This document shows positions 37,281 through 55,277 of a stretch of DNA of 64,000 bases, in pieces. The stretch lies in IMG/VR virus record IMGVR_UViG_3300027804_000001, positions 128,001-192,000 of that record, one strand, 5' to 3'. This DNA comes from a virus (Duplodnaviria; Caudoviricetes). The translations under genes were made by a program, and so were the position numbers. The notes under the pieces are model-generated. The model was not told where the DNA came from. It worked only from the letters and a program-made list of their open reading frames with translations, and ran no database searches. Within the stretch, counting starts at the first letter, position 1. Each line of letters begins with the position of its first letter.

Positions 37281-37478
37281 ATGAAAGCAGAAACAAAATT
37301 AACGAGCGTAAACATTATAGATGATGTTTACAAAAAATTCAAAATAAGATCAATTGAAGGTTCGATAAACCTACAAAAATTGGTTAATAGGTCATTAGAT
37401 TTATATAACAAGGATGAGAAATTTAGAGATGTGATTAATAATCATAATGGTTTAGCTTCAAGTGGTTCTAAGTTTTAA
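37281..37478 (+). CDS. Ribbon-helix-helix-like small DNA-binding protein
   Basis: TKLTSVNI strand followed by two helices (DDVYKKFKI, LQKLVNRSLDLY). First gene of the GT operon. Confidence 0.5.
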   Translation: MKAETKLTSVNIIDDVYKKFKIRSIEGSINLQKLVNRSLDLYNKDEKFRDVINNHNGLASSGSKF

Positions 37479-39584: not shown

Positions 39585-40831
39585 ATAAACCTACATTATT
39601 ATTTAGAGGACCAGTAGAAACAAGAAGTGGATATGGTGGTCATTCAAGAGATTTATTAGAGTCATTATATCAAATGGATTTATTTGATATTAAAATCGAT
39701 AGTTGTGCTTGGGGATACACTCCTAGAACCGCTTTAGGTGACAATAAATTTCACAATTGGATTAAACAAAACATAGTAAATTCATTTAATGGTGTACCTG
39801 ATTTTTATATTCAAGTAACTGTACCGAATGAATTTCAAAGACTTGGTAAATTTAATATTGGGATTACTGCAGGAATAGAAACCACAATCGCACCAAAAAA
39901 TTGGGTTGATGGTTGTAACAGAATGGATTTAATAATAACAACATCAAATTTTTCAAGAGATGTTTTGATTCAAACTGTTTATAATGAAACAGAAAAGTTA
40001 ACAGGTAAGATTGTTAAACAACACAAAATTGAAAAACCAATAGAGGTTTTATTTGAGGGTGTTAATACCGATATTTTTAATAACAAAGAGGGGGATTTAG
40101 AATTGGACATTAAAGAAGACTTTGCTTATCTATTTGTTGGTCATTGGTTAAAAGGTGAATTAGGACGCGATAGAAAAGATGTAGGTATGCTGATAAGGTG
40201 TTTCTTAGAGGCGTTTAACAATGCCGATGATAAACCCGCATTAATACTTAAAACGTCAAGTGCCACATTCTCAGTAAAAGAAAGAGAATCATTAAGAAGT
40301 AAAATTGAAGAAATTAGTATGGGTTTTGGTAATCCACCATCTATATACCTATTATTTGGGGATTTAACTGATAATGAAATGAATTCTTTATATAACCATC
40401 CTAAAGTAAAATCAATGGTGTCAATTACTAAAGGGGAGGGTTTTGGTAGACCGCTATTAGAATTTTCTATGACAGGTAAACCAATAATAGCTTCTAATTG
40501 GTCGGGACACAAAGATTTTTTACCAATGAATAGGGCCATTATGATTGGTGGTAAATTAGTCGAAGTTCATGATAGTGTAATAGATGATTTTATCATTAAA
40601 GGTTCTAAATGGTTTAATGCAAATTATAATGAATTTATTGAAGTATTGAAAATAGTAAAAAAAGATTACGATACATTCAAAACAAATTCTGAAGATTTGG
40701 GAAAAGAAAATAGTGAAAAATTTAGTTTATCTAAAATGACCGAAAAGTTTAAACAAATCATATCTCCTTATTTAATTGAAAAACCGAAAGAACATAAATT
40801 AGTTTTACCAAAATTGACAAGAGTTAAATAA
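39581..40831 (+). CDS. GT4-family glycosyltransferase
   Basis: GPVETRSGYG, FVGHW, RKDVG and GEGFGRPLLEF. Confidence 0.85.
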   Translation: MNKPTLLFRGPVETRSGYGGHSRDLLESLYQMDLFDIKIDSCAWGYTPRTALGDNKFHNWIKQNIVNSFNGVPDFYIQVTVPNEFQRLGKFNIGITAGIETTIAPKNWVDGCNRMDLIITTSNFSRDVLIQTVYNETEKLTGKIVKQHKIEKPIEVLFEGVNTDIFNNKEGDLELDIKEDFAYLFVGHWLKGELGRDRKDVGMLIRCFLEAFNNADDKPALILKTSSATFSVKERESLRSKIEEISMGFGNPPSIYLLFGDLTDNEMNSLYNHPKVKSMVSITKGEGFGRPLLEFSMTGKPIIASNWSGHKDFLPMNRAIMIGGKLVEVHDSVIDDFIIKGSKWFNANYNEFIEVLKIVKKDYDTFKTNSEDLGKENSEKFSLSKMTEKFKQIISPYLIEKPKEHKLVLPKLTRVK

Positions 40832-41064
40832 TGAATTTTAAATTTTTAAGAGGTGGTGAAGAATCTATGGGTAATATATTAACATTTCATCAACCAAGAT
40901 TCCAAAATAATGTTGAGTTTTGTTTTCAATTTGATGACGGAGAACCTACAGTATTTGGTAATGGTCCGAATGATTTACACATCCATATAACACCAAATGG
41001 AAACATTACTTTCACGAGTAATAATGGTCAAACATTTAAAATATTTGCAAGAGAAAGACAATGA
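40831..41064 (+). CDS. Hypothetical protein
   Basis: 77-aa coupled ORF. Confidence 0.6.
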   Translation: MNFKFLRGGEESMGNILTFHQPRFQNNVEFCFQFDDGEPTVFGNGPNDLHIHITPNGNITFTSNNGQTFKIFARERQ

Positions 41065-41681
41065 AAATAAGTTTTGCAATTACAGTTTGTAATGAATTAA
41101 ATGAAATAAAGAAATTAATTCCATTCTTATTAGAACATAAAAGAATTGAAGACGAAATTGTTATTTTATATGATGAAAAAAATGGTAGTGAAGATGTTTT
41201 AAATTTTTTATTGGAGTATAATAAATTACCTAATGTGCAAGTGTGGAGAAGTTTTGAATGGAAAAATGATTTTGCTGAATGGAAGAATAAATTGAATCAA
41301 TATTGTACGGGTGATTATATTTTTCAACTAGATGCTGATGAAATGATTAGTGAGTACATGATTAAAAACACTTCTGTTATATTGGAAATGAATCCAAATG
41401 TAGATTTGATTTTTGTTCCAAGAATTAATACTGTAGATGGTATAACAGAAGAACACATAAAAGTTTGGAATTGGAGAATAGACGAAAATCAACGAATAAA
41501 CTTTCCCGATTTTCAAGGTAGAATTTATAAGAAAAACATGTCTTGGTATGGTAGAGTTCACGAAAGAATCGTAGGTGGTAAATATTTTTCATCGTTACCT
41601 ACGGAAGAAACATACTGTCTATTACACCATAAAACAATAAAAAGACAAGAAAATCAAAACGATTTTTATAGTAAAATTTAA
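41061..41681 (+). CDS. GT2-family glycosyltransferase
   Basis: ISFAITVCNE, FQLDADE, FPDFQGR and VHE. Confidence 0.85.
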   Translation: MKISFAITVCNELNEIKKLIPFLLEHKRIEDEIVILYDEKNGSEDVLNFLLEYNKLPNVQVWRSFEWKNDFAEWKNKLNQYCTGDYIFQLDADEMISEYMIKNTSVILEMNPNVDLIFVPRINTVDGITEEHIKVWNWRIDENQRINFPDFQGRIYKKNMSWYGRVHERIVGGKYFSSLPTEETYCLLHHKTIKRQENQNDFYSKI

Positions 41682-41682
41682 T

Positions 41683-42225
41683 ATGAATAACTTAAACGAA
41701 ATTTATAAAAAATATCAATCAAATGAGGGTCACGGTGACAAAGGTACCTCCCATAGTTACATAGATGAATATGATAGAATATTAAATCCTTATAGGTATA
41801 ACTCAACAATTTTAGAAATTGGTTTATGTATGGGTGAATCTTTAAGAATGTGGGAAGAATATTTTATAGATTCTGAAGTGATTGGTATCGATATAAATCA
41901 ACATTTATTAAAAGATTTAATTGATGAAAACACACATAATATAATAATTGGGGACGCAACAAAAGAGGAAATATTAGAATCGTTTCCAAATAAAATGTTT
42001 GATGTTTTAATTGATGATGGTAGTCACAGACTAATTGATCAAATAAAAACGTTTGATATTTTTAAAAAAAGAATTAATAATGGTGGGATATACATAATTG
42101 AGGACGTATTAAATATTGATGGAGTAAAAGATATTTTTTTACAATTACATAATAACATTCAAATAATAGACAATAGACATATCAAAAATAGACACGATGA
42201 TGTCTTAATTATTTATAAATTTTAA
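41683..42225 (+). CDS. Class I SAM-dependent O-methyltransferase
   Basis: GDKGTSHSY, LEIG, IDDGSH and YIIED. Confidence 0.8.
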   Translation: MNNLNEIYKKYQSNEGHGDKGTSHSYIDEYDRILNPYRYNSTILEIGLCMGESLRMWEEYFIDSEVIGIDINQHLLKDLIDENTHNIIIGDATKEEILESFPNKMFDVLIDDGSHRLIDQIKTFDIFKKRINNGGIYIIEDVLNIDGVKDIFLQLHNNIQIIDNRHIKNRHDDVLIIYKF

Positions 42226-42228
42226 AAT

Positions 42229-43221
42229 ATGAAAATTTTAATAACAGGTGTAGCGGGTCTACTTGGATCGAGATTGGCTGATTATATAATAGAAAATCAT
42301 CCTGATATGTACGTTGTTGGTATGGATGATTTGAGTGGTGGTTATAGAGAAAATGTACATCCAAAGGTTGAGTTTTGGCAAATGAATTTGGTTACTCATC
42401 CAATTGAAAATTGTTTTGAAGTACATAAATTTGATTATGTTTATCATTTTGCAGCATACGCCGCTGAAGGTTTATCACCATTTATTAGACAATACAATTA
42501 TGAAAATAATCTTGTTGCAACTGCAAGAATAATTAATCAATGTATTAAGAATGATGTAAAACGTTTAGTGTTTACATCAACGATGGCCGTTTATGGACAC
42601 GGTAATGGTAATATTTTTGATGAATCACAGATACCGTGTCCTGTAGATCCATATGGTATTGCAAAATATGCTTGTGAGATGGATATTAAAGTTGCAGGTG
42701 AACAACATGATTTAGATTGGTGTATTATTCGTCCACACAATGTATATGGAATCAAACAAAACATATGGGACAAATATAGAAATGTTTTAGGTATTTGGAT
42801 GTATCAATATATGAATAATGAACCTATGACAATCTTTGGTGATGGTGAACAAAAAAGGGCATTTAGTTTTATTGATGATTGTTTAGAACCACTATGGAAA
42901 GCATCTCAACAAGAAAATTGTTCAAAAGAAATTATAAATCTAGGAGGTACTAAACATTACACAATTAATGAAGCAAATAATATTTTAAGAGAGGTTATTA
43001 AAGATGGTCAAACCGTTTATAAAGAACAAAGACACGAAGTAAAAATTGCTGTTCCTACTTGGCAAAAATCAGTTGAGTTATTGGGATATGAGGATAAAAC
43101 ATCCTTATATGATGGATTATCACAAATGTGGGAATGGTCACAGAAACAACCCAACAGAGAAAGATTTATGTGGGATAACTACGAATTAGATAAAGGAATT
43201 TATAGTTTTTGGAAAAAATAA
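42229..43221 (+). CDS. NAD-dependent epimerase/dehydratase
   Basis: TGVAGLLG, FTSTMAVYG, YGIAK and RPHNVYG. Confidence 0.88.
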   Translation: MKILITGVAGLLGSRLADYIIENHPDMYVVGMDDLSGGYRENVHPKVEFWQMNLVTHPIENCFEVHKFDYVYHFAAYAAEGLSPFIRQYNYENNLVATARIINQCIKNDVKRLVFTSTMAVYGHGNGNIFDESQIPCPVDPYGIAKYACEMDIKVAGEQHDLDWCIIRPHNVYGIKQNIWDKYRNVLGIWMYQYMNNEPMTIFGDGEQKRAFSFIDDCLEPLWKASQQENCSKEIINLGGTKHYTINEANNILREVIKDGQTVYKEQRHEVKIAVPTWQKSVELLGYEDKTSLYDGLSQMWEWSQKQPNRERFMWDNYELDKGIYSFWKK

Positions 43222-43224
43222 AAT

Positions 43225-43806
43225 ATGAAAAAGATTGAATTTATAATACCAACTTATAATAGACCTGATAAATTAATGGTTATATTAATGTCAATAAAAG
43301 TACAGACAGTTAATAAATGGAAAGTACATGTTGTTGCAGATGCACCATATGAAGGGTATGAAGAAGTGAAATCGTATTTTAAAAATGATGATAGATTTAG
43401 ATTTTCCGAATTAAATGGTCCACATAAAGATTGGGGTCACACTGCAAGAAACTATGGTTTAGAAAATTTAGAAGAAGAGTGGGTTGTAATGTCTGGTGAT
43501 GATAATTATTATGTTCCTGTTTTTGTTGAGACATTTTTAGACTCAATTAATTTTAGAAATGATGCCAATTTTGTACATTGTAATTTGATACATAATTGGG
43601 TTAATAGTGATTACATACCTTTAATATCTGTACCAAGAGTTAATCGAATTGACATTGGTAATTTTATGACAAAATCAGAATATGCAAAACAAATAAGATT
43701 AGATGTGACTAAAGGAAACGCTGATGGATTGTTTGTTGAAGAATACATTAATAAATTTAAAGGGAATATTGTACACATAGAAAAGTTTTTATATGTCCAT
43801 AACTAA
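43225..43806 (+). CDS. GT2-family glycosyltransferase
   Basis: FIIPTYNR, GHTARNYG, SGDDNYY and ADGLF. Confidence 0.85.
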   Translation: MKKIEFIIPTYNRPDKLMVILMSIKVQTVNKWKVHVVADAPYEGYEEVKSYFKNDDRFRFSELNGPHKDWGHTARNYGLENLEEEWVVMSGDDNYYVPVFVETFLDSINFRNDANFVHCNLIHNWVNSDYIPLISVPRVNRIDIGNFMTKSEYAKQIRLDVTKGNADGLFVEEYINKFKGNIVHIEKFLYVHN

Positions 43807-44914
43807 TATAACGTTTGTACTAGCTGTATATAATAAATTAGATTTAACAAAAAATTGTTATGATAGGATTAGAAATATCTACCCCGAAGCACCATTAATT
43901 ATTAGCAGTGGTGGTTCAAACGATGGTACAAAAGAATGGTTGGAAGAAATTTCAAATATAGATGATTATTTATCGATATTTCATGATGACGATAGATTAA
44001 CATTTTCTGATACATATAACACAGGTATTAAATTAGTTGATACGGATAAATTAGTTTTGATTCACAATGATATGGTAATAGGTGAGGGTTTTTTAGAGGC
44101 AATAGAAAGAATTTTAACACCCGATACATTATTATCATACACAACAATTGAACCTCCTATATTCAAAGGACATCAAAGACCCGGTAAGGTTATATTAGAT
44201 TTGGGTTCGGGGTTCCACGACTTCAATTATCAACAATTCAATAACTACGTTCAACAATGGAAAGATAGTGATAATGTATACGATGGTGCCGTTTTCTTTA
44301 TGAGTGGATATAAAGACATGTTCGTTGATGTTGGTGGTTTCGATGGATTTAGTTTTAATCCATGTTTTTGTGAAGATGATGATTTTCTTATTCGTGCGAA
44401 ACTAAAAGGATATAAATTAAAAACTTGTGATTCAGCAATAACCTATCATTTTGTTTCGCAGACATCAAGATTTAGTGATGAGATGAAAAATGATAGACAA
44501 AAAATTGAAATATGTTCAAATAGAAACTTTGTAAGAAAATGGGGTATTCCAATTTATGCATTTAATGAACTTAGATATTGGGAAGATAATGTCTTTACAT
44601 TTAATACATTCTCTATGGGTTTAATTACGAGAAATAAGAATAGACTATTTGAAATTGAACCATTCTTCGATAAAATAGATTTAGGTGAAATTCCTAATGA
44701 TTATATTGACAATGAACAGAAGAATACTCAATATGATTTAAGATCTAAATTTGCTCTCACAGATACGGTAGATGTTGTTATAATAGAAGTAGAACCTTTT
44801 ACAAATGAAGATATAATAAATCTTCAGAAGCTTCGTTTGTCTATTCCCTATTATGAACCTGGTGAATATCATATCGGTAACATGTTAATAGAAATAAAAA
44901 AGGGACTTAATTAA
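43793..44914 (+). CDS. GT2-family glycosyltransferase
   Basis: IHNDM, GGFD, FCEDDD and HFVSQTSR. Confidence 0.85.
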   Translation: MSITNITFVLAVYNKLDLTKNCYDRIRNIYPEAPLIISSGGSNDGTKEWLEEISNIDDYLSIFHDDDRLTFSDTYNTGIKLVDTDKLVLIHNDMVIGEGFLEAIERILTPDTLLSYTTIEPPIFKGHQRPGKVILDLGSGFHDFNYQQFNNYVQQWKDSDNVYDGAVFFMSGYKDMFVDVGGFDGFSFNPCFCEDDDFLIRAKLKGYKLKTCDSAITYHFVSQTSRFSDEMKNDRQKIEICSNRNFVRKWGIPIYAFNELRYWEDNVFTFNTFSMGLITRNKNRLFEIEPFFDKIDLGEIPNDYIDNEQKNTQYDLRSKFALTDTVDVVIIEVEPFTNEDIINLQKLRLSIPYYEPGEYHIGNMLIEIKKGLN

Positions 44915-44923
44915 GTCCCTTTT
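44898..44923. terminator. Bidirectional terminator between convergent genes
   Basis: Perfect palindrome AAAAGGGACTTAATTAAGTCCCTTTT. Confidence 0.8.
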
Positions 44924-44926: not shown

Positions 44927-47900
44927 TTATTGTAATTTAGATTTTATTTCGTCTATTTGTTTTTGTTGTTCTTTTATTGCTTCGATTAATACTGCAATCA
45001 TCTTTTCGTATTTAACAGCCATATAACCGTTGTCTCGAGTTGTTACTATTTCAGGTAACACCTTTTGAACTTCTTGTGCAATCACACCGATGTCGTGACC
45101 TGAATTATCATGTATACCTTCCATTGGAATCCAATCAAACTCATAACCACCTATTGACATTATTTTATCTAATGAACCAACAATCGGTTCGATGTTAGTT
45201 TTTAATCTTTCATCAGAACTTGCGAATGCAATGATATCATTTGACGCCCTAATTAAACCGACAGTTGTTGATGTGGTCGCTCCACCCACAATCAATGCAC
45301 CTGTTACAGCGGTTGTTGATGAGTTCAATGTTGTACCACCATTAATAGTTAATCCTCCAAACGTTGGTGTTGCAGTTGTGTGAATATTTTGAGGAGTTGA
45401 TAACGTTACGCCACCTGTGTTAGCACTTACTGATACTTGGTTTGTTGTACCAGATATTGATGTTACACCCGCGTTGGTTAATGTTACTGAACTACCTAAT
45501 GCTACCGCACCTCCACCACTCATACCTGTTCCGGCTGTTACAGTTACAGATGAATTTGTTAATGAAGAATTACCAATGTTAGTTATTGTATTAGACGCTC
45601 CACTAATAGTTTTATTAGTTAATGTTTGAGCTGCACTAATTAAACCAATTTCAATCTCACTACCTAAAGGTCCTGCTATCCATCTGTCAGTTGTGGTATT
45701 CCATAATAACGAACCTGATACTAACGTTGATGCTGTCGCATCTCTTACAACCAAACCTGCGTTTGTTGCACCTGTACCATTAAGTTGTATAATGTTGTCA
45801 GCAATATTAACAGTTGTTGAGTTTACGGTTGTTTGTGTACCTGATACCACCAAGTTACCACCGATAGTTACTGTTGTACCATCATCGGTTATTGTTGAGT
45901 TACCTACTGTTGTTGCAGATGTGAATTTAACTAAAGTATTGTTTGTTCCTGATACTGAAACTGATGTACCTGATGTACCCGCGGTTCCACTACTACCTGA
46001 AGTTCCTGAACTACCAGAAGAACCTGAACTACCTGATGTTCCAGATGAACCACTAGAACCTGAACTACCAGAAGAACCTGAACTACCTGAAGTACCAGAT
46101 GTTCCTGAAGAACCGTTACTTCCTGATGAACCACTTGTTCCTGAACTACCAGAAGAACCTGAACTACCTGACGTTCCTGAACTACCAGAAGAACCTGAAC
46201 TACCTGAGGTACCCGAAGAACCGTTACTTCCTGATGAACCACTTGTTCCTGAACTACCAGAAGAACCTGAACTACCTGATGTTCCAGATGAACCGTTTGA
46301 ACCTGAACTACCTGATGTTCCAGATGAACCGTTTGAACCTGAACTACCTGATGTTCCAGATGAACCGCTAGAACCTGAACTACCTGAGGTACCAGATGAA
46401 CCACTAGAACCTGAACTACCTGAGGTACCACTTGATCCATTTGAACCTGAAGTACCACTTGATCCACTTGAACCCGATGTTCCTGAAGAACCGCTAGAAC
46501 CAGATGTACCACTAGTTCCTGATGAACCATTACTACCACTTGTTCCTGATGAACCCGATGAACCAGATGTTCCTGAAGAACCGGATGTTCCTGAAGAACC
46601 AGAGCTACCTGAGGTACCTGAAGTACCTGAACTACCAGATGTTCCTGAAGAACCCGATGAACCCGAACTACCAGATGAACCACTAGAACCCGATGTACCA
46701 GATGTTCCTGAAGAACCTGAAGTTCCTGAAGAACCTGAAGTTCCTGATGTACCACTACTACCATTTAAACCCGAAGTACCAGATGTACCCGATGAACCAG
46801 ATGGTGTAGATGCAATTATTAATAATATATTTTGATTATTCGAAAAACTTGAAGATCCACCATTACTTAATAACGTAACAGGTAATGTCCAATATGTTGT
46901 GTTATCAACCGGTGTACCAATTCTCCATCTTTGATAGTTAGTGTGACTTGTTTTGTCTTGTATAATAATTGTTGAACCTGATTGTAGAAATCCAACCAAT
47001 GAATCAATATTGTTATTTAAACCATCAATATCACTAACGTTAATTGAGGTTGATCCTGATTGTGTTACGTTATTCCATGAAATAAATCCACTACCTGGGT
47101 CACTACCATTTTGTGCGTTAGTCTTGGCTTGATAATTGAAGAATGAGTTTGATTGTCCTGAAGTACCACTAGAACCTGATGAACCAGAACTTCCTGAACT
47201 TCCTGATGTACCAGAACTACCTGATGTACCTGCGGTGCCACTAGAACCTGAGGTACCAGAAGTTCCACTACTTCCTGACGAACCTGATGTCCCCGAACTT
47301 CCTGAACTTCCTGATGTACCAGAACTACCTGATGTACCTGAAGTACCTGATGTTCCACTTGTACCTGAGGAACCAGACGTTCCTGATGATCCACTTGTAC
47401 CGGCCGTTCCTGATGTACCAGACGAACCAGAACTTCCCGATGAACCCGAAGTACCAGATGTACCGGATGATCCGCTCGAACCTGAAGTTCCTGAACTTCC
47501 CGATGAACCTGATGTACCAGATGTACCACTAGAACCCGATGTACCAGATGAACCACTTGAACCAGATGAACCACTTGAACCTGATGAACCACTTGAACCT
47601 GATGAACCTGATGTACCAGAAGTTCCTGATGAACCTGATGTACCAGAAGTTCCTGATGAACCTGATGTACCCGAACTACCACTTGTACCGGAAGTACCTG
47701 AACTACCTGAAGTACCAGATGTACCAGAAGTGGCGGCACTATATGAAGTACCATTTATTATTAAACTACCTGTAATATCAACAGAACCACTTACTTGTTG
47801 ATTTCCCCTAAAAAGGTTACTACCAGTAATTGCAAATTCAGTTGAATCTTTGCCGTCTAATAAATTCGAATTATCCGCGAATGATGCCGTTACTGCTCTT

Positions 47901-48034
47901 GATGCACTGACCGCGTTCGATGTTGTACCACTAATCGTTGCATTTATGGTTCCTAATACGGTAAGATCCTGTCTTACCTCCATTGAGCCGGATACTGACA
48001 GGGATCCCGTTATAAATGGTTCAAATATTTTCAT
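44927..48034 (-). CDS. Tail fibre/spike protein with two Gly-X-Ser collagen-like tracts and a C-terminal Peptidase_S74-type chaperone
   Basis: C-terminal SSDERLKTNI...GYEFDW...GVIAQEVQKVLPEIV...VKYEKMIAVLIEAIKEQQ. Long (GTS/GSS/GSN)n tracts. TATTTATT upstream. Confidence 0.88.
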   Translation of the reverse strand: MKIFEPFITGSLSVSGSMEVRQDLTVLGTINATISGTTSNAVSASRAVTASFADNSNLLDGKDSTEFAITGSNLFRGNQQVSGSVDITGSLIINGTSYSAATSGTSGTSGSSGTSGTSGSSGTSGSSGTSGTSGSSGTSGTSGSSGSSGSSGSSGSSGSSGSSGTSGSSGTSGTSGSSGSSGTSGSSGSSGTSGTSGSSGSSGSSGTSGTAGTSGSSGTSGSSGTSGTSGTSGTSGSSGTSGSSGSSGTSGSSGSSGTSGTSGSSGTAGTSGSSGTSGSSGSSGSSGSSGTSGQSNSFFNYQAKTNAQNGSDPGSGFISWNNVTQSGSTSINVSDIDGLNNNIDSLVGFLQSGSTIIIQDKTSHTNYQRWRIGTPVDNTTYWTLPVTLLSNGGSSSFSNNQNILLIIASTPSGSSGTSGTSGLNGSSGTSGTSGSSGTSGSSGTSGTSGSSGSSGSSGSSGSSGTSGSSGTSGTSGSSGSSGTSGSSGTSGSSGSSGTSGSNGSSGTSGTSGSSGSSGTSGSSGSSGTSGSNGSSGTSGSSGSSGSSGTSGSSGSSGSSGTSGSSGSNGSSGTSGSSGSNGSSGTSGSSGSSGSSGTSGSSGSNGSSGTSGSSGSSGSSGTSGSSGSSGSSGTSGSSGSNGSSGTSGTSGSSGSSGSSGSSGSSGTSGSSGSSGSSGTSGSSGTAGTSGTSVSVSGTNNTLVKFTSATTVGNSTITDDGTTVTIGGNLVVSGTQTTVNSTTVNIADNIIQLNGTGATNAGLVVRDATASTLVSGSLLWNTTTDRWIAGPLGSEIEIGLISAAQTLTNKTISGASNTITNIGNSSLTNSSVTVTAGTGMSGGGAVALGSSVTLTNAGVTSISGTTNQVSVSANTGGVTLSTPQNIHTTATPTFGGLTINGGTTLNSSTTAVTGALIVGGATTSTTVGLIRASNDIIAFASSDERLKTNIEPIVGSLDKIMSIGGYEFDWIPMEGIHDNSGHDIGVIAQEVQKVLPEIVTTRDNGYMAVKYEKMIAVLIEAIKEQQKQIDEIKSKLQ
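45962..46801 (-). repeat. Gly-X-Ser repeat tract 2 (~280 aa)
   Basis: Gly at every third residue, degenerate codons, no long exact DNA unit. Confidence 0.9.
47156..47728 (-). repeat. Gly-X-Ser repeat tract 1 (~190 aa)
   Basis: Same pattern as tract 2 (GTS/GSS/GTA). Confidence 0.9.
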
Positions 48035-48101
48035 CTAGATAAATTATTTTATATCTAATAAATACTTGCTATTTGTATTCAAGTATTAAATATTTGAAAC
48101 T

Positions 48102-50219
48102 TTAGAATAAATTTTCTATTTCATCTATAACTTGTTCGGGTGTAATCTCTTTTGAACATTCAAATTGTCTATCAGTATTCTCATGAATTGGACACCAATT
48201 CCAATTACCGGGATCAAATTTATGATTGTGCCAACAACCATTACATACATCTTTATTTATAATTCTTTGAATGTTTTTAAATGGTTCTAAATAAACATCA
48301 GTAAAACCTGATATTAAAACAACAGGAATACCCGAAGACCACGCTAACCAACTCAAACCACTACTAATTCCGATAAAGAATTGGGATTCTTGTAAAACTT
48401 TTAAAATTTCTTTTGTACTACTTGGTGGTTGTTTCTTTACACCTTTAGGATGTTTGTTTCCCATGTATCCATCTTCCTCACTTGAAAGTAGTCTTACTTC
48501 ATATCCTTTTGATTTTATGTAATCGACAACTTTTTGCCATCCTTCAGGATTGTTCCAGTACTTACATTGAGAGGTTGAGTGAATAGCAATACAAACTCTT
48601 TTCTTTTTGTGTCCACCCAATGAAGGTACTTTTGGTAAAATTTCTTTGTAGTCTAACCCCAAAATATCCGATGCGATTTTCTGTAACGGTTCTTTTAGTG
48701 GATTATATGGGTGTTTATCATAGTCAACTTCGTTACCATTATAAAATAAACCTAATCTATATAGACCCAATATACCATTTACAGATGAACCAGGAGTAAC
48801 AAATTCAATATCGGGATATTGTTCTTTTAATAAATCATTGTGAAATGTTGAACAAATAACATTACACTTTTTCTGAATCCTAAATTCTTCAACATAAGGA
48901 ATAAACGCCAAGGTGTCCCCCAACGATTTTGATTCGAAACAAATGTAGAACTTGTTATTTTGTGGGTTAAATTCATGGTAACTATCGTAGTCATTATCTA
49001 CACCCTTAATTCGAATCAACCAATCAACATAGTATTTTGTTGAGGGTTTACACCACTGATTATTACTCAATATAGTTTGATAAACAATCTGATTATTTTT
49101 CTTATTTATAAATTGGATATTATATTTGTATGGAACGGTATCCAATATCTCAACAAATGGACCATCGACAAAGTGAATATTAAATTTTCTATTAGATTCT
49201 TTATTCTTCCAATCTAATATATTCTTTCTTTTAAACTCAGATAACTCCTCTTTTAATAGTTGGGTGAATACCTCAATTCCTTGGTAAAAAACTCTAACGG
49301 TTTCATTTTTAACATAGTCACCCAATAATTCTAAATGATATTCACCCCTTTTTACTGTATAAAAGAATTTTCTATCTCCATAGTTTACTTCACATAGATA
49401 ATCCTTGTCAGCGGGTTTTTCAGAAAACCCCGATACGAAATGAATATATAGTTTATTGTTATGGTCTACAGCCAAATAAGTTTGGAAAATTGCACCGTTT
49501 TTAAGAATACCATTTCTATTCCATGCTGCATATATATTTAATTCATTATCATTAGGAATATACTTACTTACAAAAACACTATTTGTAATTTTTCTTAATG
49601 TTTGATAGAATACTCTTTCTAACTGCCAACCATTTGGTCTGTTCTTAAAATATTCTTCTTTTGAATTAACTTGATTGATGACAGATAATGCAACATCGGT
49701 TTTTATGGAGAATATAAAAGTTGATGAATATGGTGGGTTTTCATTTGTTGAATTTTTTTGGTATTCGTATACAACCGCATCATGACTTCTGACATATTCC
49801 ATAAACGCTTGTCTATATTGTACCTCATCAGGAATATTATCATATTCTAAAAAGTGAATATATTTCTTGTTAAGTTGTTTTGCCAAATTAAAAGCGTTCT
49901 TCATCGTCAACCAAATGGCATAGTCATGGTGAAAGTCTAGTTTATTGAATACTTTATAGTCATTCATTATGGTCCACCTATCACTTACGACACCATATTC
50001 TTCAAAATCTTTTTCTAACAATAAATCATTATTCTTATCGAAAATAAAATAATCTACTTGTTTTTGTATTTCAGGTTTTACGGGATAGTGTCCACACAGA
50101 ATTATTGGAACATTAAATGTTTTTATTCTTTCTAATAAATTAAGTAATGTTCTTTCTTTTTCTTCGGTATCTAACCAACAGTCAACTACAAATATATCTT
50201 CATTAAAACTATAACCCAT
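48102..50219 (-). CDS. Aah/TibC-type (BAHT) protein O-glycosyltransferase fused to an N-terminal GT-A-like domain
   Basis: WCKPSTKYYV, FESKSLGDT, HSTSQCKYWNN, FIGISSGLSWLAW and four Fe-binding-type Cys (CNGC...WCP...EC). The N-terminal ~340 aa contain FLEYD. Confidence 0.8.
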   Translation of the reverse strand: MGYSFNEDIFVVDCWLDTEEKERTLLNLLERIKTFNVPIILCGHYPVKPEIQKQVDYFIFDKNNDLLLEKDFEEYGVVSDRWTIMNDYKVFNKLDFHHDYAIWLTMKNAFNLAKQLNKKYIHFLEYDNIPDEVQYRQAFMEYVRSHDAVVYEYQKNSTNENPPYSSTFIFSIKTDVALSVINQVNSKEEYFKNRPNGWQLERVFYQTLRKITNSVFVSKYIPNDNELNIYAAWNRNGILKNGAIFQTYLAVDHNNKLYIHFVSGFSEKPADKDYLCEVNYGDRKFFYTVKRGEYHLELLGDYVKNETVRVFYQGIEVFTQLLKEELSEFKRKNILDWKNKESNRKFNIHFVDGPFVEILDTVPYKYNIQFINKKNNQIVYQTILSNNQWCKPSTKYYVDWLIRIKGVDNDYDSYHEFNPQNNKFYICFESKSLGDTLAFIPYVEEFRIQKKCNVICSTFHNDLLKEQYPDIEFVTPGSSVNGILGLYRLGLFYNGNEVDYDKHPYNPLKEPLQKIASDILGLDYKEILPKVPSLGGHKKKRVCIAIHSTSQCKYWNNPEGWQKVVDYIKSKGYEVRLLSSEEDGYMGNKHPKGVKKQPPSSTKEILKVLQESQFFIGISSGLSWLAWSSGIPVVLISGFTDVYLEPFKNIQRIINKDVCNGCWHNHKFDPGNWNWCPIHENTDRQFECSKEITPEQVIDEIENLF

Positions 50220-50878
50220 TATCTTTTTGTTAATATAATAATTCCATTTAGGAAGTTTATTGATTCAATGTCTACTAAACATCCTGGTTGTGTTTTCATC
50301 GATAAAGATGTTAACCAATCCTCTCTTCTGGCATGTACATTAGGTGCCTCAAAATTCATTAATCCTCTAAAATTAACATCATCAACCAAGGATTTGAATG
50401 TTTCGATGCTTGTAGTTGGTTTTAAATAACCACCTTCGTAATCCTCCCAATACGCAGTACCACAATCTTCAATGATATAAACTCCACCAGGTTTTACGTT
50501 ATTCCACAAATATTGGAAGGAATAAACAACATGTGAATTCATATGTGACCCATCATCCAAAATCATATCAAATGGTCCATATTTTAATTTAATTTCTTTT
50601 AAAAATTCACTATCTGCTTGTGATCCGATTTCAACTGAAACTCTTTCTTCCACATATTGTTTACAATCAGGATTGATGTCGATTCCTATTATTTTGGAAC
50701 GGTAAAAATATTCTTTCCACGATTTTAACGATTTACCATTAAGAACTCCAATTTCTAAAATGTTTAATTCATCATATCTATTAAATGGTAGATATTTTTC
50801 ATACTTAACACAATAATTGTGTATATCGGAACTTTTATCTGTTCCGTGTGATTGTGCAATTTTATTTAGTGTACTCAT
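50219..50878 (-). CDS. Class I SAM-dependent O-methyltransferase
   Basis: GTDKSS..HNY, LEIGV, LDDGSH and GGVYIIED. Confidence 0.8.
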   Translation of the reverse strand: MSTLNKIAQSHGTDKSSDIHNYCVKYEKYLPFNRYDELNILEIGVLNGKSLKSWKEYFYRSKIIGIDINPDCKQYVEERVSVEIGSQADSEFLKEIKLKYGPFDMILDDGSHMNSHVVYSFQYLWNNVKPGGVYIIEDCGTAYWEDYEGGYLKPTTSIETFKSLVDDVNFRGLMNFEAPNVHARREDWLTSLSMKTQPGCLVDIESINFLNGIIILTKR

Positions 50879-53601
50879 CTTGTAAAATATATCATTTGTA
50901 AAGCATTATTTGAACCCATAAACATAAGATATGAATTGAATCCAAGTATAGTCATTCTGTTTATTAATTTCTGTCTTAAATTATCATCATAATTGAAATG
51001 TGAATGATGGTATTCCATTGATATGGTTTTAACTTTCATTAAATTTTCATCACTAATACCTGCAAGTGCATGATGTTCGGCACCTTCAATGTCAACTTTA
51101 AGAAAATCAATCCTATCTATTAAACCCGTTTCAAATAGATAATTTAATGTATATGTTCTTACATTATATGTTTTTGCATTTTCTTGTGTACCAAATAAAT
51201 TTGATCCACCTAAATGTGTACTTTCATATAATGTCATTTCACCAATTTCATTACTTGCTGCACCGTTAAATAAAATAGAACGTGGATCCGCGTTTAATGA
51301 AAGTAATTTAAAATATCTTCTATCAGGTTCAAATGAAATTACTTTACTTGCACCTTGATTATATGCCCATCTATTAAACACACCGATATTCCCACCTAAA
51401 TCCACAACAATATCTCCCTCATTAATTCTTTTTTCTCTTTCTTTATAATAATCTCTTAAGTTAAAAATTTCATGAAATATCGCGGGTGCCCATCCAAATT
51501 TTTCAGCTACTTGAATGGTGCTAGCTTCGTATTCAAATAAATTCTCAAAGTTTTCTAATTTATAAACATCCGTATAAAAACACATTGATTTATAAAATGA
51601 TTTGTCTCTTTGCATTTTAATGAATTCAATCATTCTATCTGATATCTCCGCATTTTTGTTTCCGTGAAAATAAATTATGTCAGATTTATCTTTAGGGATA
51701 TATTGATACCCGAATATTCTATTAAAATTTTGTGGACCTTCTTCATTCCAAAATTTATAAAACTGATGTAAAGTTCTGTCGATAAATCCTTCATCCCCAT
51801 CATAAGAAGATGTGTCAAAGTTTGAAAGTGGTAAATGATTGGTATAACCGTACTTCCATCTCATTGCATTATCAATACCTTCATCATTCCACAAATAAAG
51901 TCTTTTATAATCTTTGGGGTTATTTTTCATTATTGTTTCATAATGATTTATAATTTCTTCGAACCAAGATTTGGAGTTATTGTTATAAATGTAAAAACAA
52001 ACGTGTGCGTATGGATTACCTTTTTTGATTTCCCACTCATTACTTAATTGTTCATTAAATAATTGTGATTTGTTACCATTATCATACATTCCAAAAAATT
52101 CTTCTTGTACGTGAATATCAGATAATGGATAATGACCGACTTTATTAAAATATTTTCTAACAGTATCAATATTATGATTAACAACAACATCACCATCAAT
52201 CCATATAAAGTATTCAAAATCTTCTTTCAAAGATTCAGTACAAGCATGTTGTTTCCAATACCATTTATCGTGTTCAGATATTTTTGGTGGATTTATGGTT
52301 CTCTTTATAATATTCGGATAATCAAATGGAACGTCACAATCCACACCATACACAATAATTTTTTGTTCTGAAAACTCTAATAATGATTGAACTAACTTTT
52401 CAATTACCGGCATATACCCAAGATTACCCGTTGTTACAAAGGCAAATGGTTTCTTATTTCTTGTTAATATATCAGATGCACCTTTTGCAATGGTGTCCCA
52501 ATTAAAGTTTTTATGTATATCTTTTGCGTCACTAACTGATTTAACCCACATTGCGGTATTATAATCATATGACTGTCTCATCTTAAATTTTAAATCCTCC
52601 CAATCTGGCTCACAATACTCACCAGGCCATTCCTTATGTTCAATATTTGCGGGTCTTAATCCTTTAATTGCAACTGGTACACCCTTACCTTCCGCAAATT
52701 GTAATTGTCCCCCCCAATCTGAATATATTGACGGTGTTCCACACGCCATTGCCTCAATTAAAGGTAAATTCCATCCTTCACTTCTTGCGCACGATACGAA
52801 TACATGTGCGGTTTGTAAATAATTTACATATTGTTCTCTCGACGGAAAATTTAAAAACTTAATATTCTTAGTGTCAATACCATAATGTTTAACTCTTTCT
52901 TCCGTTGAATTCATACCGTCATATGGATATGGATTTTCAACAGATGCTAAAAGTTCAACATCGTCAACATCTTTAAATTCTTCCGCAAAGGCTTGTAAAA
53001 TTTCAGTAGTACCTTTTCTATAATCCCATCTACCAAAATGAACAAACCTAACCTTTTCTCTTTTTGGAAATTTTTTAATTGGTTTAAATACATCAACATC
53101 AACACCTTCGGGTACAATAAAAATTCTTTCTTTTGGATACCCTTGTTCCACCAAACAATCAAATTGCCATTGAGTAGGAACCCATACCTCATCAAAGTAA
53201 AAAAGTCTCTTAAAAAATTCATCAGGATATCTAGTTGATTCCCAAACATTATATGCAATCTTATATCCAACATAATCTTCATAGAAATAATGATTATTAG
53301 TTTCCATTAAAACTATGTGTACATCCGGAACAAAATCACCTTTGTAATCATACATCGGTTCATCTACTCTTCCATTACCATCGGATCTATGTAATGTTTG
53401 TAGAATTAACATGTCCTCCATATCTTTGGTAAAATATGATTCACCATCGTGAGGACGATTATTCATTCCCTTCCAACTATTTCCAATTGTAAGGTTTCGT
53501 ATTTTTACTGTATGGTACTTATTGAGAGCACGGAAAAATGATCTTGAATGATTCGCATATCCCGTTGTACCTATAAATGGGGCGTGTCCTAATATCTTCA
53601 T
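50875..53601 (-). CDS. Three-domain fusion: GT4, GT-A (DxD) and FkbM methyltransferase
   Basis: GTTGYANH / FGRWDYRKG / EGWNLPLIEAMACGTP (GT4); WIDGD / NDEG / FHGNK (GT-A); VDLGGNIG / FLKVDIEG (FkbM). Confidence 0.8.
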   Translation of the reverse strand: MKILGHAPFIGTTGYANHSRSFFRALNKYHTVKIRNLTIGNSWKGMNNRPHDGESYFTKDMEDMLILQTLHRSDGNGRVDEPMYDYKGDFVPDVHIVLMETNNHYFYEDYVGYKIAYNVWESTRYPDEFFKRLFYFDEVWVPTQWQFDCLVEQGYPKERIFIVPEGVDVDVFKPIKKFPKREKVRFVHFGRWDYRKGTTEILQAFAEEFKDVDDVELLASVENPYPYDGMNSTEERVKHYGIDTKNIKFLNFPSREQYVNYLQTAHVFVSCARSEGWNLPLIEAMACGTPSIYSDWGGQLQFAEGKGVPVAIKGLRPANIEHKEWPGEYCEPDWEDLKFKMRQSYDYNTAMWVKSVSDAKDIHKNFNWDTIAKGASDILTRNKKPFAFVTTGNLGYMPVIEKLVQSLLEFSEQKIIVYGVDCDVPFDYPNIIKRTINPPKISEHDKWYWKQHACTESLKEDFEYFIWIDGDVVVNHNIDTVRKYFNKVGHYPLSDIHVQEEFFGMYDNGNKSQLFNEQLSNEWEIKKGNPYAHVCFYIYNNNSKSWFEEIINHYETIMKNNPKDYKRLYLWNDEGIDNAMRWKYGYTNHLPLSNFDTSSYDGDEGFIDRTLHQFYKFWNEEGPQNFNRIFGYQYIPKDKSDIIYFHGNKNAEISDRMIEFIKMQRDKSFYKSMCFYTDVYKLENFENLFEYEASTIQVAEKFGWAPAIFHEIFNLRDYYKEREKRINEGDIVVDLGGNIGVFNRWAYNQGASKVISFEPDRRYFKLLSLNADPRSILFNGAASNEIGEMTLYESTHLGGSNLFGTQENAKTYNVRTYTLNYLFETGLIDRIDFLKVDIEGAEHHALAGISDENLMKVKTISMEYHHSHFNYDDNLRQKLINRMTILGFNSYLMFMGSNNALQMIYFTR

Positions 53602-53634: not shown

Positions 53635-54207
53635 TCAAATCAATTTCTTATCTTTTGTGAAATATTTTGAACCATATGGAAAGGGGATATCACTTTGCAA
53701 TTCGAATATATTCTTCAATTTCTCTATTCCATTTTCATAATACAAATGTTCATATGAAATGGTTGGCAAATCGTTTTGATTTGCAAAATCAATGAGGGTC
53801 TTTTTATTAAATTCTACCTCCTCTTTGAATTTATCATAATCTTCCTTAACAAACACTCTGTCCACATCTTTTTGTGTATAGTTATGATGATATCGATTCT
53901 CTTTACTTGAATACATGTGTGAGATGGTTTGTTCGTGTGTGTTTTCCCTATAAAGACAAAGAATCTTTGTACTTAATTTTAAAATCATACTGTAATTTTG
54001 TTCGGGATACCATAACTCTTTAATGAAATATTTTTTGTTTTCTAACCAGTCAAAGTCCTGTAAGGTTGTATCATTTGTGTAAATGTTAAAATCTGAATTA
54101 AATGGTTCATGAATTACAATGAATTCATTATTAAGTGATTGTTTTATCCAGTTCATTAGATTTTGACCACCAGTTCTATATTGTGCTATAATGGTATATA
54201 ATGTCAT
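53635..54207 (-). CDS. Sulfotransferase-like protein
   Basis: QYRTGGQNL (PAPS loop-like), HEPF, LYRE and ISYEHL. The protein ends KKLI. Confidence 0.55.
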   Translation of the reverse strand: MTLYTIIAQYRTGGQNLMNWIKQSLNNEFIVIHEPFNSDFNIYTNDTTLQDFDWLENKKYFIKELWYPEQNYSMILKLSTKILCLYRENTHEQTISHMYSSKENRYHHNYTQKDVDRVFVKEDYDKFKEEVEFNKKTLIDFANQNDLPTISYEHLYYENGIEKLKNIFELQSDIPFPYGSKYFTKDKKLI

Positions 54208-55274
54208 TATATCATAGTTTTTTTCATATCTAAAAACTCGTGTAGATTATGAAACACAAATGGGTCCTTGGCAACTTTATTAAATTCAATAAGAAAATCA
54301 TTATGATTAGGATGATTAACATCCCATACTTTTAAAAACTCAAATTGTTCATGTGTAAAAGTGCCCCAATTATTTATCTTACCATAAAAAACTTTTGTTT
54401 TCATACCAAAGATACTTTTCATTTGTTCTAAAAAAATACCCATTTCTTTATAGTTAGATTGTTGAACCACAAATGATGTTTTAACTTTTTTCATTTTAGG
54501 TATTGTGGCAATAAATTTAAGATTGGAAATTAAATTTTCCCATTCCCCATTTAATCTAGTTACATTCTCATATGTTTCTTTTGTACCCGCATCTATACTG
54601 ATTTCACATGTTAACACATAAGGATGAATATTTATCATTGATTCCCACATTTCTTTATTCCATAAACTTGCATTAGTATGTAGGTGTATATTTTTAAGTT
54701 TTGGGTACTTCTTAGGATTAAAGTTTCTAAGATAGTTTCTGTATGATACCGATGCAAATGGATCCGCGGTACCCGAACAATAAATTGTTTCTATTGAATT
54801 TGAGAAGGCTTCCTCCATTTCTTCGATTGTGGAATTAATTCTATTAATACCTTCCGAATTTGCAACAATCATTTTAACTCTACAAGATGGACATTTATAA
54901 TTACAAGTTCTATCAAAAGACATTTGTAATATTGTGGGACCATGTTCCATATGTGATTCCTTTTTTTCATAATGTTCTTTAATATAATCAGGTAAATTTT
55001 CAATTTTTTGTATGGGACCTGATGAGTCCATGTTGTAATTTAATAATTGAGCCAAAAATGGACATTGGGTTTTATCACAAAATCTATAGGAACCATCCAT
55101 CACCGATTCTCTAATTTCTATTGCCTCTTTACTATTCCATAAGTCTTTCAATGGAATTTTGTTTGGTAATTCCTTAGTCAACCAACTTGCACAACACATA
55201 AAATTTTTATTTTCATGTATTTCAACTGCTTGAAATGGAACAGTACAAACGTAATTCTTTAAATCAATATCCAT
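54207..55274 (-). CDS. Radical SAM protein with N-terminal SPASM/twitch-like domain
   Basis: CNYKCPSC (CxxxCxxC), CTVPF..CC..DLWNS, SGTADPF and HTNA. The protein ends KTMI. Confidence 0.85.
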   Translation of the reverse strand: MDIDLKNYVCTVPFQAVEIHENKNFMCCASWLTKELPNKIPLKDLWNSKEAIEIRESVMDGSYRFCDKTQCPFLAQLLNYNMDSSGPIQKIENLPDYIKEHYEKKESHMEHGPTILQMSFDRTCNYKCPSCRVKMIVANSEGINRINSTIEEMEEAFSNSIETIYCSGTADPFASVSYRNYLRNFNPKKYPKLKNIHLHTNASLWNKEMWESMINIHPYVLTCEISIDAGTKETYENVTRLNGEWENLISNLKFIATIPKMKKVKTSFVVQQSNYKEMGIFLEQMKSIFGMKTKVFYGKINNWGTFTHEQFEFLKVWDVNHPNHNDFLIEFNKVAKDPFVFHNLHEFLDMKKTMI

Positions 55275-55277
55275 ATT

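Follow-up and report, generated by a model that had tools for sequence, protein, structure and literature searches.

TibC and Aah hyper-heptosylate the adhesin that is encoded beside them (TibA and AIDA-I, respectively). Both enzymes belong to the bacterial autotransporter heptosyltransferase (BAHT) family (TIGR04414; PDB ids: 4RAP, 4RB4), the enzymes of which are known to modify serines located in the strand-loop-strand turns of a β-helix (PMC4358343). Glycosylated collagen-like sequences have been described in other settings. BclA of the Bacillus anthracis exosporium forms a trimeric collagen-like filament, in which G-X-Thr repeats of polymorphic number are densely O-glycosylated (PMC10050317) and bear a glycan whose terminal sugar is methylated and tailored, the product of a dedicated operon. 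LH3 and COLGALT1 (animal, giant virus) also put sugar on collagen triple-helix sequence, and in the cuticle collagen of Riftia, according to work listed in PMC11923368 (Mann 1996, pmid 8757292; Bann 2000, pmid 10812082), glycosylated Thr stabilizes the protein, with galactosyl-threonine taking the stabilizing role of hydroxyproline. Finally, mycobacteriophage virions are O-glycosylated by phage glycosyltransferases that act on the phage's own structural proteins (Freeman 2023, as cited in PMC12619734).

The locus described here lies in a 64,000-nucleotide window from a large uncultured freshwater phage and contains two minus-strand ORFs, a BAHT enzyme (P0001) and a collagen-like tail fiber (P0002). 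A literature search returned no publication describing such a pairing of a BAHT with a collagen-like phage fiber. As with TibC and Aah, the gene directly after that of the enzyme encodes a long, repetitive surface protein rich in Ser, and the cytoplasm would be where the enzyme encounters its substrate. Unlike in these systems, the neighbor is a collagen-like S74 phage tail fiber and not an AIDA-type β-helical autotransporter, the enzyme carries a fused N-terminal GT-A domain and a β-sandwich, and the genes are viral instead of belonging to a pathogen adhesin locus. BclA differs from P0002 in its proline-rich (GPT) repeats, in its glycosyltransferases, which are unrelated to BAHT, and in its location on a spore surface instead of a virion. 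In the mycobacteriophage case cited above, the sugars are placed on the C-terminal tails of capsid and tail-tube subunits, no collagen-like acceptor is involved and the enzymes are non-BAHT. The LH3/COLGALT1 and Riftia modifications fall on hydroxylysine, or on Thr at the Y position, which sets them apart from what is proposed for P0001.

Architecture of the enzyme, the fiber and their locus

The P0001 gene (48102..50219, minus strand), defined by its ORF, its translation and its match to TIGR04414, encodes a predicted bifunctional glycosyltransferase of 705 residues. The protein consists of an N-terminal GT-A-fold nucleotide-sugar transferase domain (residues 7–218; 49566..50201), a β-sandwich linker domain (residues 245–337; 49209..49487), which is delineated by the secondary structure of its AF2 model and has no family assignment, and a C-terminal TibC/Aah-type BAHT domain (residues 348–703; 48111..49178), delineated by HMMER alignment to TibC (PDB id: 4rap). 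The BAHT domain scores 283.4 bits on TIGR04414 hepto_Aah_TibC (model positions 14–373 of 374), the curated trusted cut-off of which is 200 bits, and 285 bits in a six-frame search. In a phmmer search of the PDB, TibC (4rap/4rb4) is the sole match of P0001 (E 3e-54). By sequence, this domain genuinely belongs with the bacterial protein heptosyltransferases TibC and Aah, as an earlier note on this DNA had claimed; the protein passes the curated model which that note had named, and the motifs it had quoted are all present (KYYV at residue 395, SLGD at 432, KYWNN at 553, FIGISSGLSWLA at 615 and Cys 659/662/676/688). The same architecture is common to more than 120 homologues (60–85% identity) on contigs of up to 339 kb.

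Residues 1–347, which the earlier note did not mention, constitute an extra N-terminal half bearing the second glycosyltransferase. A single-sequence model of the entire P0001 is unusable (pLDDT 37.5), and the GT-A domain was modeled by AF2 from a 28-sequence alignment (pLDDT 86.6, pTM 0.81). In Foldseek searches, this model matches the GT-A enzymes GfsA (8yrl), LH3 (6fxr), alpha3GalT (1g93) and COLGALT1 (9evj) with E-values of 5e-7 to 1e-5, as well as AFDB GT-A clusters. Judged by the modeled fold, a Rossmann-like α/β/α sandwich, residues 7–218 are a second transferase of the GT-A type. Its candidate DXD-like motif is E125-Y-D127, and H122 and D127 are invariant in the 28 sequences. The resemblance to LH3 and COLGALT1 is that of the general fold only (TM-score 0.14 to 0.57, ~10% identity). 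Neither Pfam nor PHROG has a family that matches the domain, which therefore cannot be placed in a particular GT family.

P0002, the proposed acceptor, is a 1035-residue tail fiber (44927..48034, minus strand) and the sole collagen-type ORF in the 180.8-kb record. It matches Pfam Collagen (217 bits) and Peptidase_S74 and several PHROG tail-fiber families, the latter including its non-repeat C-terminal part. The fiber contains two collagen-like blocks devoid of Pro and Lys, one of 64 G-[T/S]-S triplets (residues 104–295; 47150..47725) and one of 93 G-[S/T]-[S/N] triplets (residues 413–691; 45962..46798). Both are uninterrupted and together comprise 157 triplets, or 471 residues, in line with the "about 470" reported previously. 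Of the 157 triplets, 155 have Ser or Thr at X and 147 have Ser at Y; this Pro-free G-S/T-S sequence is predicted to form a triple helix. Residues 701–935 make up a β-rich, Thr/Ser-rich region with AIDA-like V-T-x-G-S turns, and residues 940–997 an S74 intramolecular chaperone domain (45044..45217; Pfam PF13884, 66 bits, full length), the Ser-Lys dyad of which (S940-x4-K945, SDERLK) is predicted to mediate self-cleavage.

On the same strand, 67 bp separate the enzyme gene from the fiber gene that follows it; the enzyme is indeed encoded directly upstream of a Ser-rich tail fiber. There is no terminator-like site between the two genes; the only one, a bidirectional hairpin (44898..44923), follows the fiber gene and separates it from a convergent GT2 gene. 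Immediately upstream of the BAHT gene is a SAM methyltransferase gene (219 residues; 50219..50878, minus strand; Pfam Methyltransf_24, phrog_21658), which some relatives have fused with the BAHT gene (895-residue products). It is preceded by a gene for a GT4 glycosyltransferase and FkbM methyltransferase (908 residues; 50875..53601, minus strand), which is syntenic in the relatives L011 and L012, and by co-directional genes (53635..57135, minus strand) for an unknown protein, a radical-SAM protein (twitch type), another unknown protein, a 2OG-Fe(II) oxygenase and an SGNH/GDSL-like protein. On the plus strand, a convergent sugar block (37478..44914), also syntenic in relatives, encodes a GT4, an unknown protein, a GT4, a GT2, a methyltransferase, an SDR epimerase/dehydratase (42229–43221) and two further GT2 proteins. 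The order GT4/FkbM, methyltransferase, BAHT, S74 fiber is retained in relatives with 64–67% identity on complete contigs of ~335 kb. With respect to the further decoration genes postulated earlier, those for GT4/FkbM, methyltransferase and GT2 proteins are real and have syntenic counterparts in relatives, and the candidate for acetylation is the weak SGNH/GDSL match. In different phage lineages, fusions join the BAHT domain to GT4, GT2, GT25 and methyltransferase domains, in the manner of an assembly line.

Active site and donor sugar

Residue columns were checked over 153 homologues, with the roles of TibC residues taken from PMC4358343. The catalytic base, D110 in TibC, is D435 of the SLGD motif in P0001. 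Of the 153 aligned homologues, 148 have this Asp; the remainder are three rows truncated at this position, one with Asn and one without a BAHT ORF. T549 and K553 correspond to T226 and K230 of TibC (β-phosphate contacts) and W624 to W305 (sugar contact). The four cysteines of the 1Fe-0S iron finger (C659, C662, C676 and C688) match TibC C339, C342, C358 and C370 in a similar spacing pattern, and iron binding is predicted. The tip of the predicted β-hairpin thumb, Y585/M586 within a conserved DGYMGN motif, is still hydrophobic (F265/V266 in TibC, which assembles as a dodecamer). P0001 shares with TibC and Aah the catalytic Asp, the T/K pair, the Trp and the four cysteines of the finger, and S619, in the place of TibC P300, is a Ser as in Aah.

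Unlike TibC, P0001 has an isoleucine (I605) in place of Arg286, on which an ungapped HMMER alignment and two MAFFT alignments concur. In TibC, Arg286 contacts adenine N1, which is the basis of ADP-sugar specificity, and the R286A mutation abolished or largely diminished activity (PMC4358343). This column is I/V/L/A/M/T throughout the subclade of P0001 (~60 rows), and Arg is retained elsewhere. P0001 retains the TibC sugar pocket but not the adenine-N1 contact, and its donor may hence be a heptose carried by another nucleotide, or some other sugar. The donor-pathway search found no NTP_transferase, and gmhA is absent from the phage record and from five related ones (three of them 95–100% complete). 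Two small HldE-domain-II-like ORFs both score well below the cut-off; in the window, a cytidylyl/adenylyl-transferase-like ORF (137 residues; 18862..19275, minus strand) has HldE domain II as its best NCBIfam match at such a level. The replacement of Arg286 and the lack of gmhA in the phage and its near-complete relatives, in which the locus again differs from TibC/Aah, lend weight to an earlier caveat that the donor may not be the classical one.

Recurrent pairing of BAHT with collagen-like repeats

Across 79 viral loci, the first three positions downstream of the BAHT gene (+1 to +3) hold a collagen-like Ser/Thr ORF in 37 of 189 cases (22/73 at +1, 9/63 at +2 and 6/53 at +3), versus 4 of 448 for all upstream positions pooled. 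Fisher's exact test of near versus far gives p = 3e-7, a value uncorrected for the relatedness of the loci. In a tree built from 153 BAHT domains, a single well-supported branch splits a TibC-like group from the phage and environmental-bacterial group that includes P0001. A G-S/T-S/T repeat neighbor is found in 51 of 102 rows of the latter versus 1 of 51 in the former; when only complete neighborhoods are counted, the fractions are 23/40 (viral) and 11/19 (bacterial) versus 0/5 and 1/12. AIDA-type autotransporters are confined to the TibC-like branch, where they are the neighbors in 4 of 5 loci checked. The partners encoded on bacterial chromosomes are secreted proteins or lipoproteins, which share with the fiber only a (GTS)n, (GSS)n or (GTT)n run. 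The association of BAHT with Ser-repeat proteins, which the earlier note had named as its refutation test, is thus positive, across several deep clades and in bacterial chromosomes. About 40% of the complete-neighborhood loci in the branch of P0001, including those of its close relatives L033/L041, L037 and L040, have no collagen-like neighbor, and in the cultured Microcystis phage Mel-JY01 the BAHT neighbor is Ser-rich but not G-X-Y.

The contrast between the two branches suggests that the fiber is very likely the acceptor of P0001, and since the pairing recurs in many phages and bacteria, the fiber is probably sugar-coated. The sugar is proposed to reside on the collagen-like blocks and not on other parts of the fiber. 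It is unlikely, if conceivable, that P0001 is a protein O-glycosyltransferase with its acceptor elsewhere, in fiber residues 701–935 or in other virion proteins. The β-helix turns in which known BAHT acceptors sit (PMC4358343) are unlike a collagen-like chain, the Thr/Ser-rich β-type region of the fiber is conserved in L011, and the Mel-JY01 neighbor also fits such a role. However, the fiber of L012 keeps the G-X-Y block without the AIDA-like V-T-x-G-S turn segment, and the repeat run is the sole feature common to the bacterial partners and the fiber.

There is a somewhat slimmer chance that the island acts on the host envelope during infection, remodeling LPS core, O-chain or capsule (e.g. 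to exclude other phages), and that the adjacency of the fiber reflects a shared hypervariable region. A match to Pfam PF01075 puts the BAHT domain in the GT9 superfamily of LPS heptosyltransferases. Fiber genes and glycosyltransferases both cluster in the hypervariable host-recognition islands of large aquatic phages, and fiber-proximal glycosyltransferases in the hypervariable region of pelagimyophages have been read as host-LPS modifiers (PMC7029224). Nevertheless, LPS heptosyltransferase models score P0001 at about 21–25 bits versus 283 for the protein-acting BAHT model, the BAHT-specific predicted iron finger and thumb are retained, the enrichment is directional (immediately downstream), and the pairing of enzyme and repeat is also found in bacterial chromosomes, outside phage fiber islands. 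Loss of transferase activity on the classical donor, with the BAHT domain serving as a fiber folding or assembly factor, would accord with the replaced Arg286, the effect of R286A in TibC, the missing gmhA and the BAHT homologue BimC, which is reported to serve BimA localization and not glycosylation, but is highly improbable, given that the catalytic Asp, T/K and Trp are conserved subclade-wide, as expected under selection for catalysis, and that fusions link the BAHT domain with other transferases and with methyltransferases.

Proposed mechanism and implications

The overall explanation favored here, which has a better than even chance of being correct, is that P0001 glycosylates the collagen-like blocks of the fiber, and that its GT-A domain and the neighboring gene products elaborate the glycan. 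Produced in the infected cell, P0001 would be a two-headed protein glycosyltransferase. Its C-terminal BAHT domain, with a predicted GT9-like GT-B fold, iron finger and thumb, would O-glycosylate Ser/Thr hydroxyls in the (Gly-Ser/Thr-Ser)n blocks of the fiber encoded downstream, and its N-terminal GT-A domain, together with the GT4/FkbM, methyltransferase and GT2 products, would extend and methylate the glycan. The fiber would trimerize with the aid of the S74 chaperone, which would cleave itself off. The dense glycan would stabilize and shield a triple helix that contains no proline or hydroxyproline, and may also act in host recognition.

A more tentative possibility, which we regard as doubtful, is that half of the BAHT family, that of phages and free-living Gram-negatives, does not modify autotransporters but is a dedicated "collagen glycosylase" of Pro-free (Gly-Ser/Thr-Ser/Thr)n sequences, in which the dense O-glycan would replace hydroxyproline in stabilizing the triple helix, and that the subclade of P0001 switched its nucleotide donor after the loss of the Arg.

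If P0001 does glycosylate the fiber, this phage would be among the uncommon tailed phages that glycosylate their own virions, with the first receptor-binding fiber to be modified in this way and the first use of a BAHT outside pathogen adhesins. Such a system would provide glyco-engineers with a compact pair of enzyme and repeat tag. It would explain how stable triple helices form in fibers composed nearly exclusively of Gly, Ser and Thr, a fiber type common in aquatic phage metagenomes, and would supply a role for hundreds of phage and environmental-bacterial genes that are annotated as "autotransporter heptosyltransferase" but lie near no autotransporter. Glycan coats on fibers would bear on host range, protease resistance and the recognition of phage particles.

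A candidate fibre-modifying enzyme and its neighbouring fibre

P0001, a 705-residue enzyme encoded at 48102–50219, and P0002, the 1035-residue tail fibre encoded at 44927–48034 and its proposed acceptor, both lie on the minus strand at the positions claimed in the earlier note, and all enzyme motifs listed there are found in P0001. The C-terminal domain of P0001 (residues 348–703) scores 283 bits on TIGR04414, a curated NCBI equivalog entitled 'autotransporter strand-loop-strand O-heptosyltransferase' (cut-off 200), which agrees with the earlier assignment to bacterial autotransporter heptosyltransferases (BAHT) of the TibC/Aah type. Models of LPS heptosyltransferases reach only ~21–25 bits on P0001, and no PHROGs family matches it. 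Its sole match among all PDB sequences is TibC (4rap/4rb4; E 3e-54, TibC residues 40–383). When residue roles are taken from the TibC structure paper (PMC4358343), D435 corresponds to the catalytic base Asp110, T549 and K553 to the β-phosphate contacts Thr226 and Lys230, W624 to Trp305, which contacts heptose-O4, Y585/M586 to the thumb tip Phe265/Val266, and C659, C662, C676 and C688 to the four iron-finger cysteines. The stereoselectivity position, Pro300 in TibC, is S619 here and likewise Ser in Aah. The fold and oligomer interfaces of the BAHT domain were assessed by sequence alignment; a single-sequence AF2 model of the whole 705 residues has a pLDDT of 37.5, too low to be of use.

The N-terminal half of P0001 has no Pfam or PHROG match. 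Its AF2 model, computed from a 28-sequence alignment (pLDDT 86.6, pTM 0.81), predicts a GT-A nucleotide-sugar transferase fold for residues 7–218 and a β-sandwich for residues 245–337. Foldseek aligns residues 7–218 with many GT-A enzymes (E 5e-7 to 1e-5), AlphaFold DB clusters concur, and an invariant acidic E125-Y-D127 motif follows the central strand. A C-terminal domain that passes TIGR04414 and an N-terminal domain of predicted GT-A fold make P0001 a putative double glycosyltransferase.

The fibre P0002, the sole collagen-type ORF across the entire record, contains two unbroken Gly-X-Y blocks (residues 104–295 and 413–691) with 157 triplets in total, of which 155 have Ser or Thr at X and 147 have Ser at Y. 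Neither block contains Pro or Lys; Asn occurs at Y (G-S-N), as does Asp in relatives (G-S-D). The C-terminus is a Peptidase_S74 intramolecular chaperone with a Ser-x4-Lys motif, and P0002 matches several PHROG tail-fibre families, also via its C-terminal non-repeat part. The G+C of the repeat region is 43% vs ~29% elsewhere, as expected from its Gly, Ser and Thr codons. When 44927–48034 is compared with the orthologous fibre genes of related loci (L012:12751–14067, L014, L020–L036), the number of triplets per fibre ranges from ~20 to 157 among relatives with 60–85% identical enzymes, so the repeat blocks appear to grow and shrink fast.

A terminator-like hairpin (44898–44923), the sole one in the region, directly follows the fibre gene, and none lies between the enzyme and fibre genes. 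Upstream of P0001, also on the minus strand, are genes for a methyltransferase (50219–50878) and a GT4 + FkbM methyltransferase protein (50875–53601), and further upstream on the same strand for a protein of the radical-SAM family, for 2OG-Fe(II) oxygenases and for one SGNH-like product. On the plus strand, convergent with the fibre gene, lie glycosyltransferase genes (two of GT4, three of GT2) along with genes for a methyltransferase and an SDR epimerase/dehydratase. The order GT4/FkbM, methyltransferase, BAHT, S74 fibre and the convergent GT2/epimerase block are the same in 64–67% identical relatives, whose fibres retain a G-S/T-S block of very different lengths. The radical-SAM protein (54207–55274) is of the twitch type, and the oxygenases (55763–56317, 59990–60610 and 60607–61260) form a cluster, to which the upstream genes of the related loci L011 and L012 add Asp_Arg_Hydrox (aspartyl/asparaginyl β-hydroxylase-like). 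A role of these oxygenases as collagen prolyl or lysyl hydroxylases of the repeat blocks was rejected, because the blocks lack both substrate residues.

The virus record (linear, 180,831 bases, G+C ~29%, CheckV completeness estimate 54%) is a piece of a jumbo tailed phage, since close relatives of the P0001 gene sit on contigs of 320–340 kb, including one with a completeness rating of 100%. Known phages resemble the record at the DNA level in two places only, in the repeat region and, for Microcystis phage Mel-JY01, in the BAHT gene. The closest bacterial homologues of the BAHT domain come from MAGs of Pseudobdellovibrionaceae, Methylococcales and Burkholderiales, and some of these MAG contigs are probably phage. 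A tie to the published 'moraphages' (200–307 kb, Bacteroidota hosts predicted; PMC12619734) was sought and none was established. The window also encodes three ordinary phage functions, a DNA methyltransferase (phrog_27806; 11365–12429), a metallo-endopeptidase/endolysin-like protein (15575–16906) and a thymidylate synthase (phrog_160; 29706–30722).

Enzyme–repeat pairs in phages and bacteria

The association of BAHT genes with G-X-S fibres suspected in the earlier note is apparent in a survey of 80 viral loci with BAHT-domain relatives (33–84% identity; ORFs called mechanically). A collagen-like Ser/Thr ORF, counted as such if it had 14 or more G-X-Y triplets and if Ser and Thr made up 40% or more of its richest 100-residue stretch, occupies the +1 position downstream of the BAHT gene at 22 of 73 loci, the +2 position at 9 of 63 and the +3 position at 6 of 53, against 4 of 448 for all upstream positions pooled. 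Near and far positions differ with p = 3e-7 (Fisher's exact test, relatedness of loci ignored). The pairing is seen in 8 of 24 clusters at 70% identity and in 3 of 11 at 55% identity, and is therefore recurrent but not universal.

The loci vary in layout. In a marine or aquatic phage clade (L064–L080), the +1 position after the BAHT gene is taken by a conserved ORF of 129–130 residues with no known function, which always lies between the BAHT fusion and a collagen-like S74 fibre. The BAHT domain occurs twice on some phage contigs (L053:7980–10451, L064:8828–9712, L088), either in tandem within one 824-residue protein or with a separate second copy of ~294 residues, which lacks the N-terminal β-barrel and directly follows the fusion protein. 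In Mel-JY01 (L002, PP395634.1), the product of 4750–8430, deposited as 'methyltransferase FkbM', is actually a 1226-residue fusion of a GT4, a GT-A-like N-domain, a methyltransferase and a BAHT domain. Because this fusion adjoins a Ser-rich 'structural protein', Mel-JY01 offers a cultured system for testing the fibre-glycosylation idea. Its 'cytidylyltransferase like protein' and the neighbours of that gene yielded nothing informative, and no paper on Mel-JY01 was found in the literature.

A scan of prokaryotes (one genome per species) contributed 80 further BAHT loci. The nearest bacterial homologues (35–53% identity) belong to Methylococcales, Burkholderiales, Arenicellales, other Gammaproteobacteria, a Pseudobdellovibrionaceae MAG and Bordetella sputigena. 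These homologues adjoin small secreted proteins or lipoproteins, which resemble the phage fibre in nothing but a run of (GTS)n, (GSS)n or (GTT)n. Repeat proteins with a signal peptide or lipobox lie by stand-alone BAHT genes at L111:9160–10041, L123:9163–10577, L097:6826–7776 and L120:9252–9878, and such (GTS)n/(GSS)n/(GTT)n proteins, some with poly-Asp ends, are encoded on Methylococcales and Arenicellales chromosomes. Such bacterial repeat proteins, probably surface glycoproteins, would form a class not yet studied.

The tree built from 153 BAHT domains (FastTree; a quick tree with several long branches and a root that is not known) contains one branch, with a support of 100, that separates 51 from 102 rows, and AIDA-type and collagen-like neighbours sort to its opposite sides. 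The 51-row side includes an annotated Salmonella Aah/AIDA-I pair; of 5 neighbours checked there with Pfam, 4 are AIDA-type autotransporters, and a collagen-like neighbour occurs once in 51 rows. On the 102-row side, which includes P0001, there are 51 rows with a collagen-like neighbour. When loci are required to have three or more ORFs both before and after the BAHT gene, the counts are 23/40 viral and 11/19 bacterial on the side of P0001 and 0/5 viral and 1/12 bacterial on the Aah side.

The donor sugar

Arg286 of TibC hydrogen-bonds adenine N1 and is the proposed source of ADP specificity; the R286A mutation abolishes or largely diminishes activity (PMC4358343). P0001 has Ile605 at this position, as two multiple alignments agree, and the stretch from Ile605 to the GLSWLAW motif is gap-free in the TibC alignment. 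The tree places the loss of Arg286 in a single ~60-row subclade and shows five changes. This subclade comprises the jumbo-phage clade, Mel-JY01 and the Methylococcales and Burkholderiales homologues; the other collagen-associated clades keep Arg286. The donor nucleotide of P0001 may thus be other than ADP.

A search for heptose genes in the rest of the genome, which the earlier note had proposed, found no gmhA in the phage record (180,831 bases, 54% complete); five related records lack it too, including three that are 95–100% complete, so the host would have to supply any heptose. The phage record also has no NTP_transferase. For two stand-alone CTP_transf_like ORFs of 124–137 residues (18862–19275, minus strand, and G000:C1:132544–132915), the top NCBIfam hit is HldE domain II, and scores of 60 and 81 bits vs a cut-off of 181.5 are too weak for a heptose-1-phosphate adenylyltransferase; these ORFs might make a nucleotide-sugar. 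The SDR at 42229–43221 was rejected as a specific HldD (77 bits vs a cut-off of 275 for the heptose epimerase), its best matches being GalE and dTDP-glucose dehydratase. The caution about the donor voiced in the earlier note is reasonable given the lost Arg286 and the missing gmhA, but the Bacteroidota host offered as its reason is only presumed.

A proposed route to a glycosylated fibre

Judged by family, anatomy and co-occurrence, the most likely mechanism is one in which P0001 would meet the nascent fibre chain in the cytoplasm and load sugars on ~300 Ser/Thr hydroxyls of both repeat blocks. Extension and methylation of the glycan would fall to the GT-A domain of P0001 and to the enzymes encoded nearby (GT4/FkbM, methyltransferase, GT2), after which the S74 domain would drive trimerisation and cleave itself off. 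Elsewhere among phage lineages, single proteins of 700–1,600 residues combine these activities with a BAHT domain, which fits an assembly line. The glycan would stabilise and shield the proline-free triple helix, a role suggested by analogy with BclA, which is densely glycosylated (PMC10050317), and with Riftia collagen, which according to references in PMC11923368 carries glycosyl-threonine.

Alternative acceptors would be other virion proteins or the fibre's own β-rich C-terminal part; or else host LPS could be what the island remodels, as was proposed for glycosyltransferases of pelagimyophage fibre regions (PMC7029224). These readings, and that of the BAHT domain as a non-catalytic assembly factor, are made less likely by the bacterial enzyme–repeat pairs, the directional adjacency of enzyme and repeat genes, the conservation of catalytic residues and a score that is far higher on the model of the protein-acting family.

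The literature yielded no paper in which BAHT enzymes are connected with phages or with collagen-like acceptors. Public protein collections hold the BAHT domain in 732 clusters at 50% identity (E ≤1e-30), many of them multi-domain fusions, and its source-given name, where there is any, is autotransporter heptosyltransferase. What is new here is the split of the tree by neighbour type, the secreted repeat partners in bacteria, the clade-wide loss of Arg286 and the near-complete relatives without gmhA. Glycosylation of the fibre repeats by P0001 would give a known enzyme family a new class of acceptor and a new biological context, with a donor that has probably changed relative to the known family.
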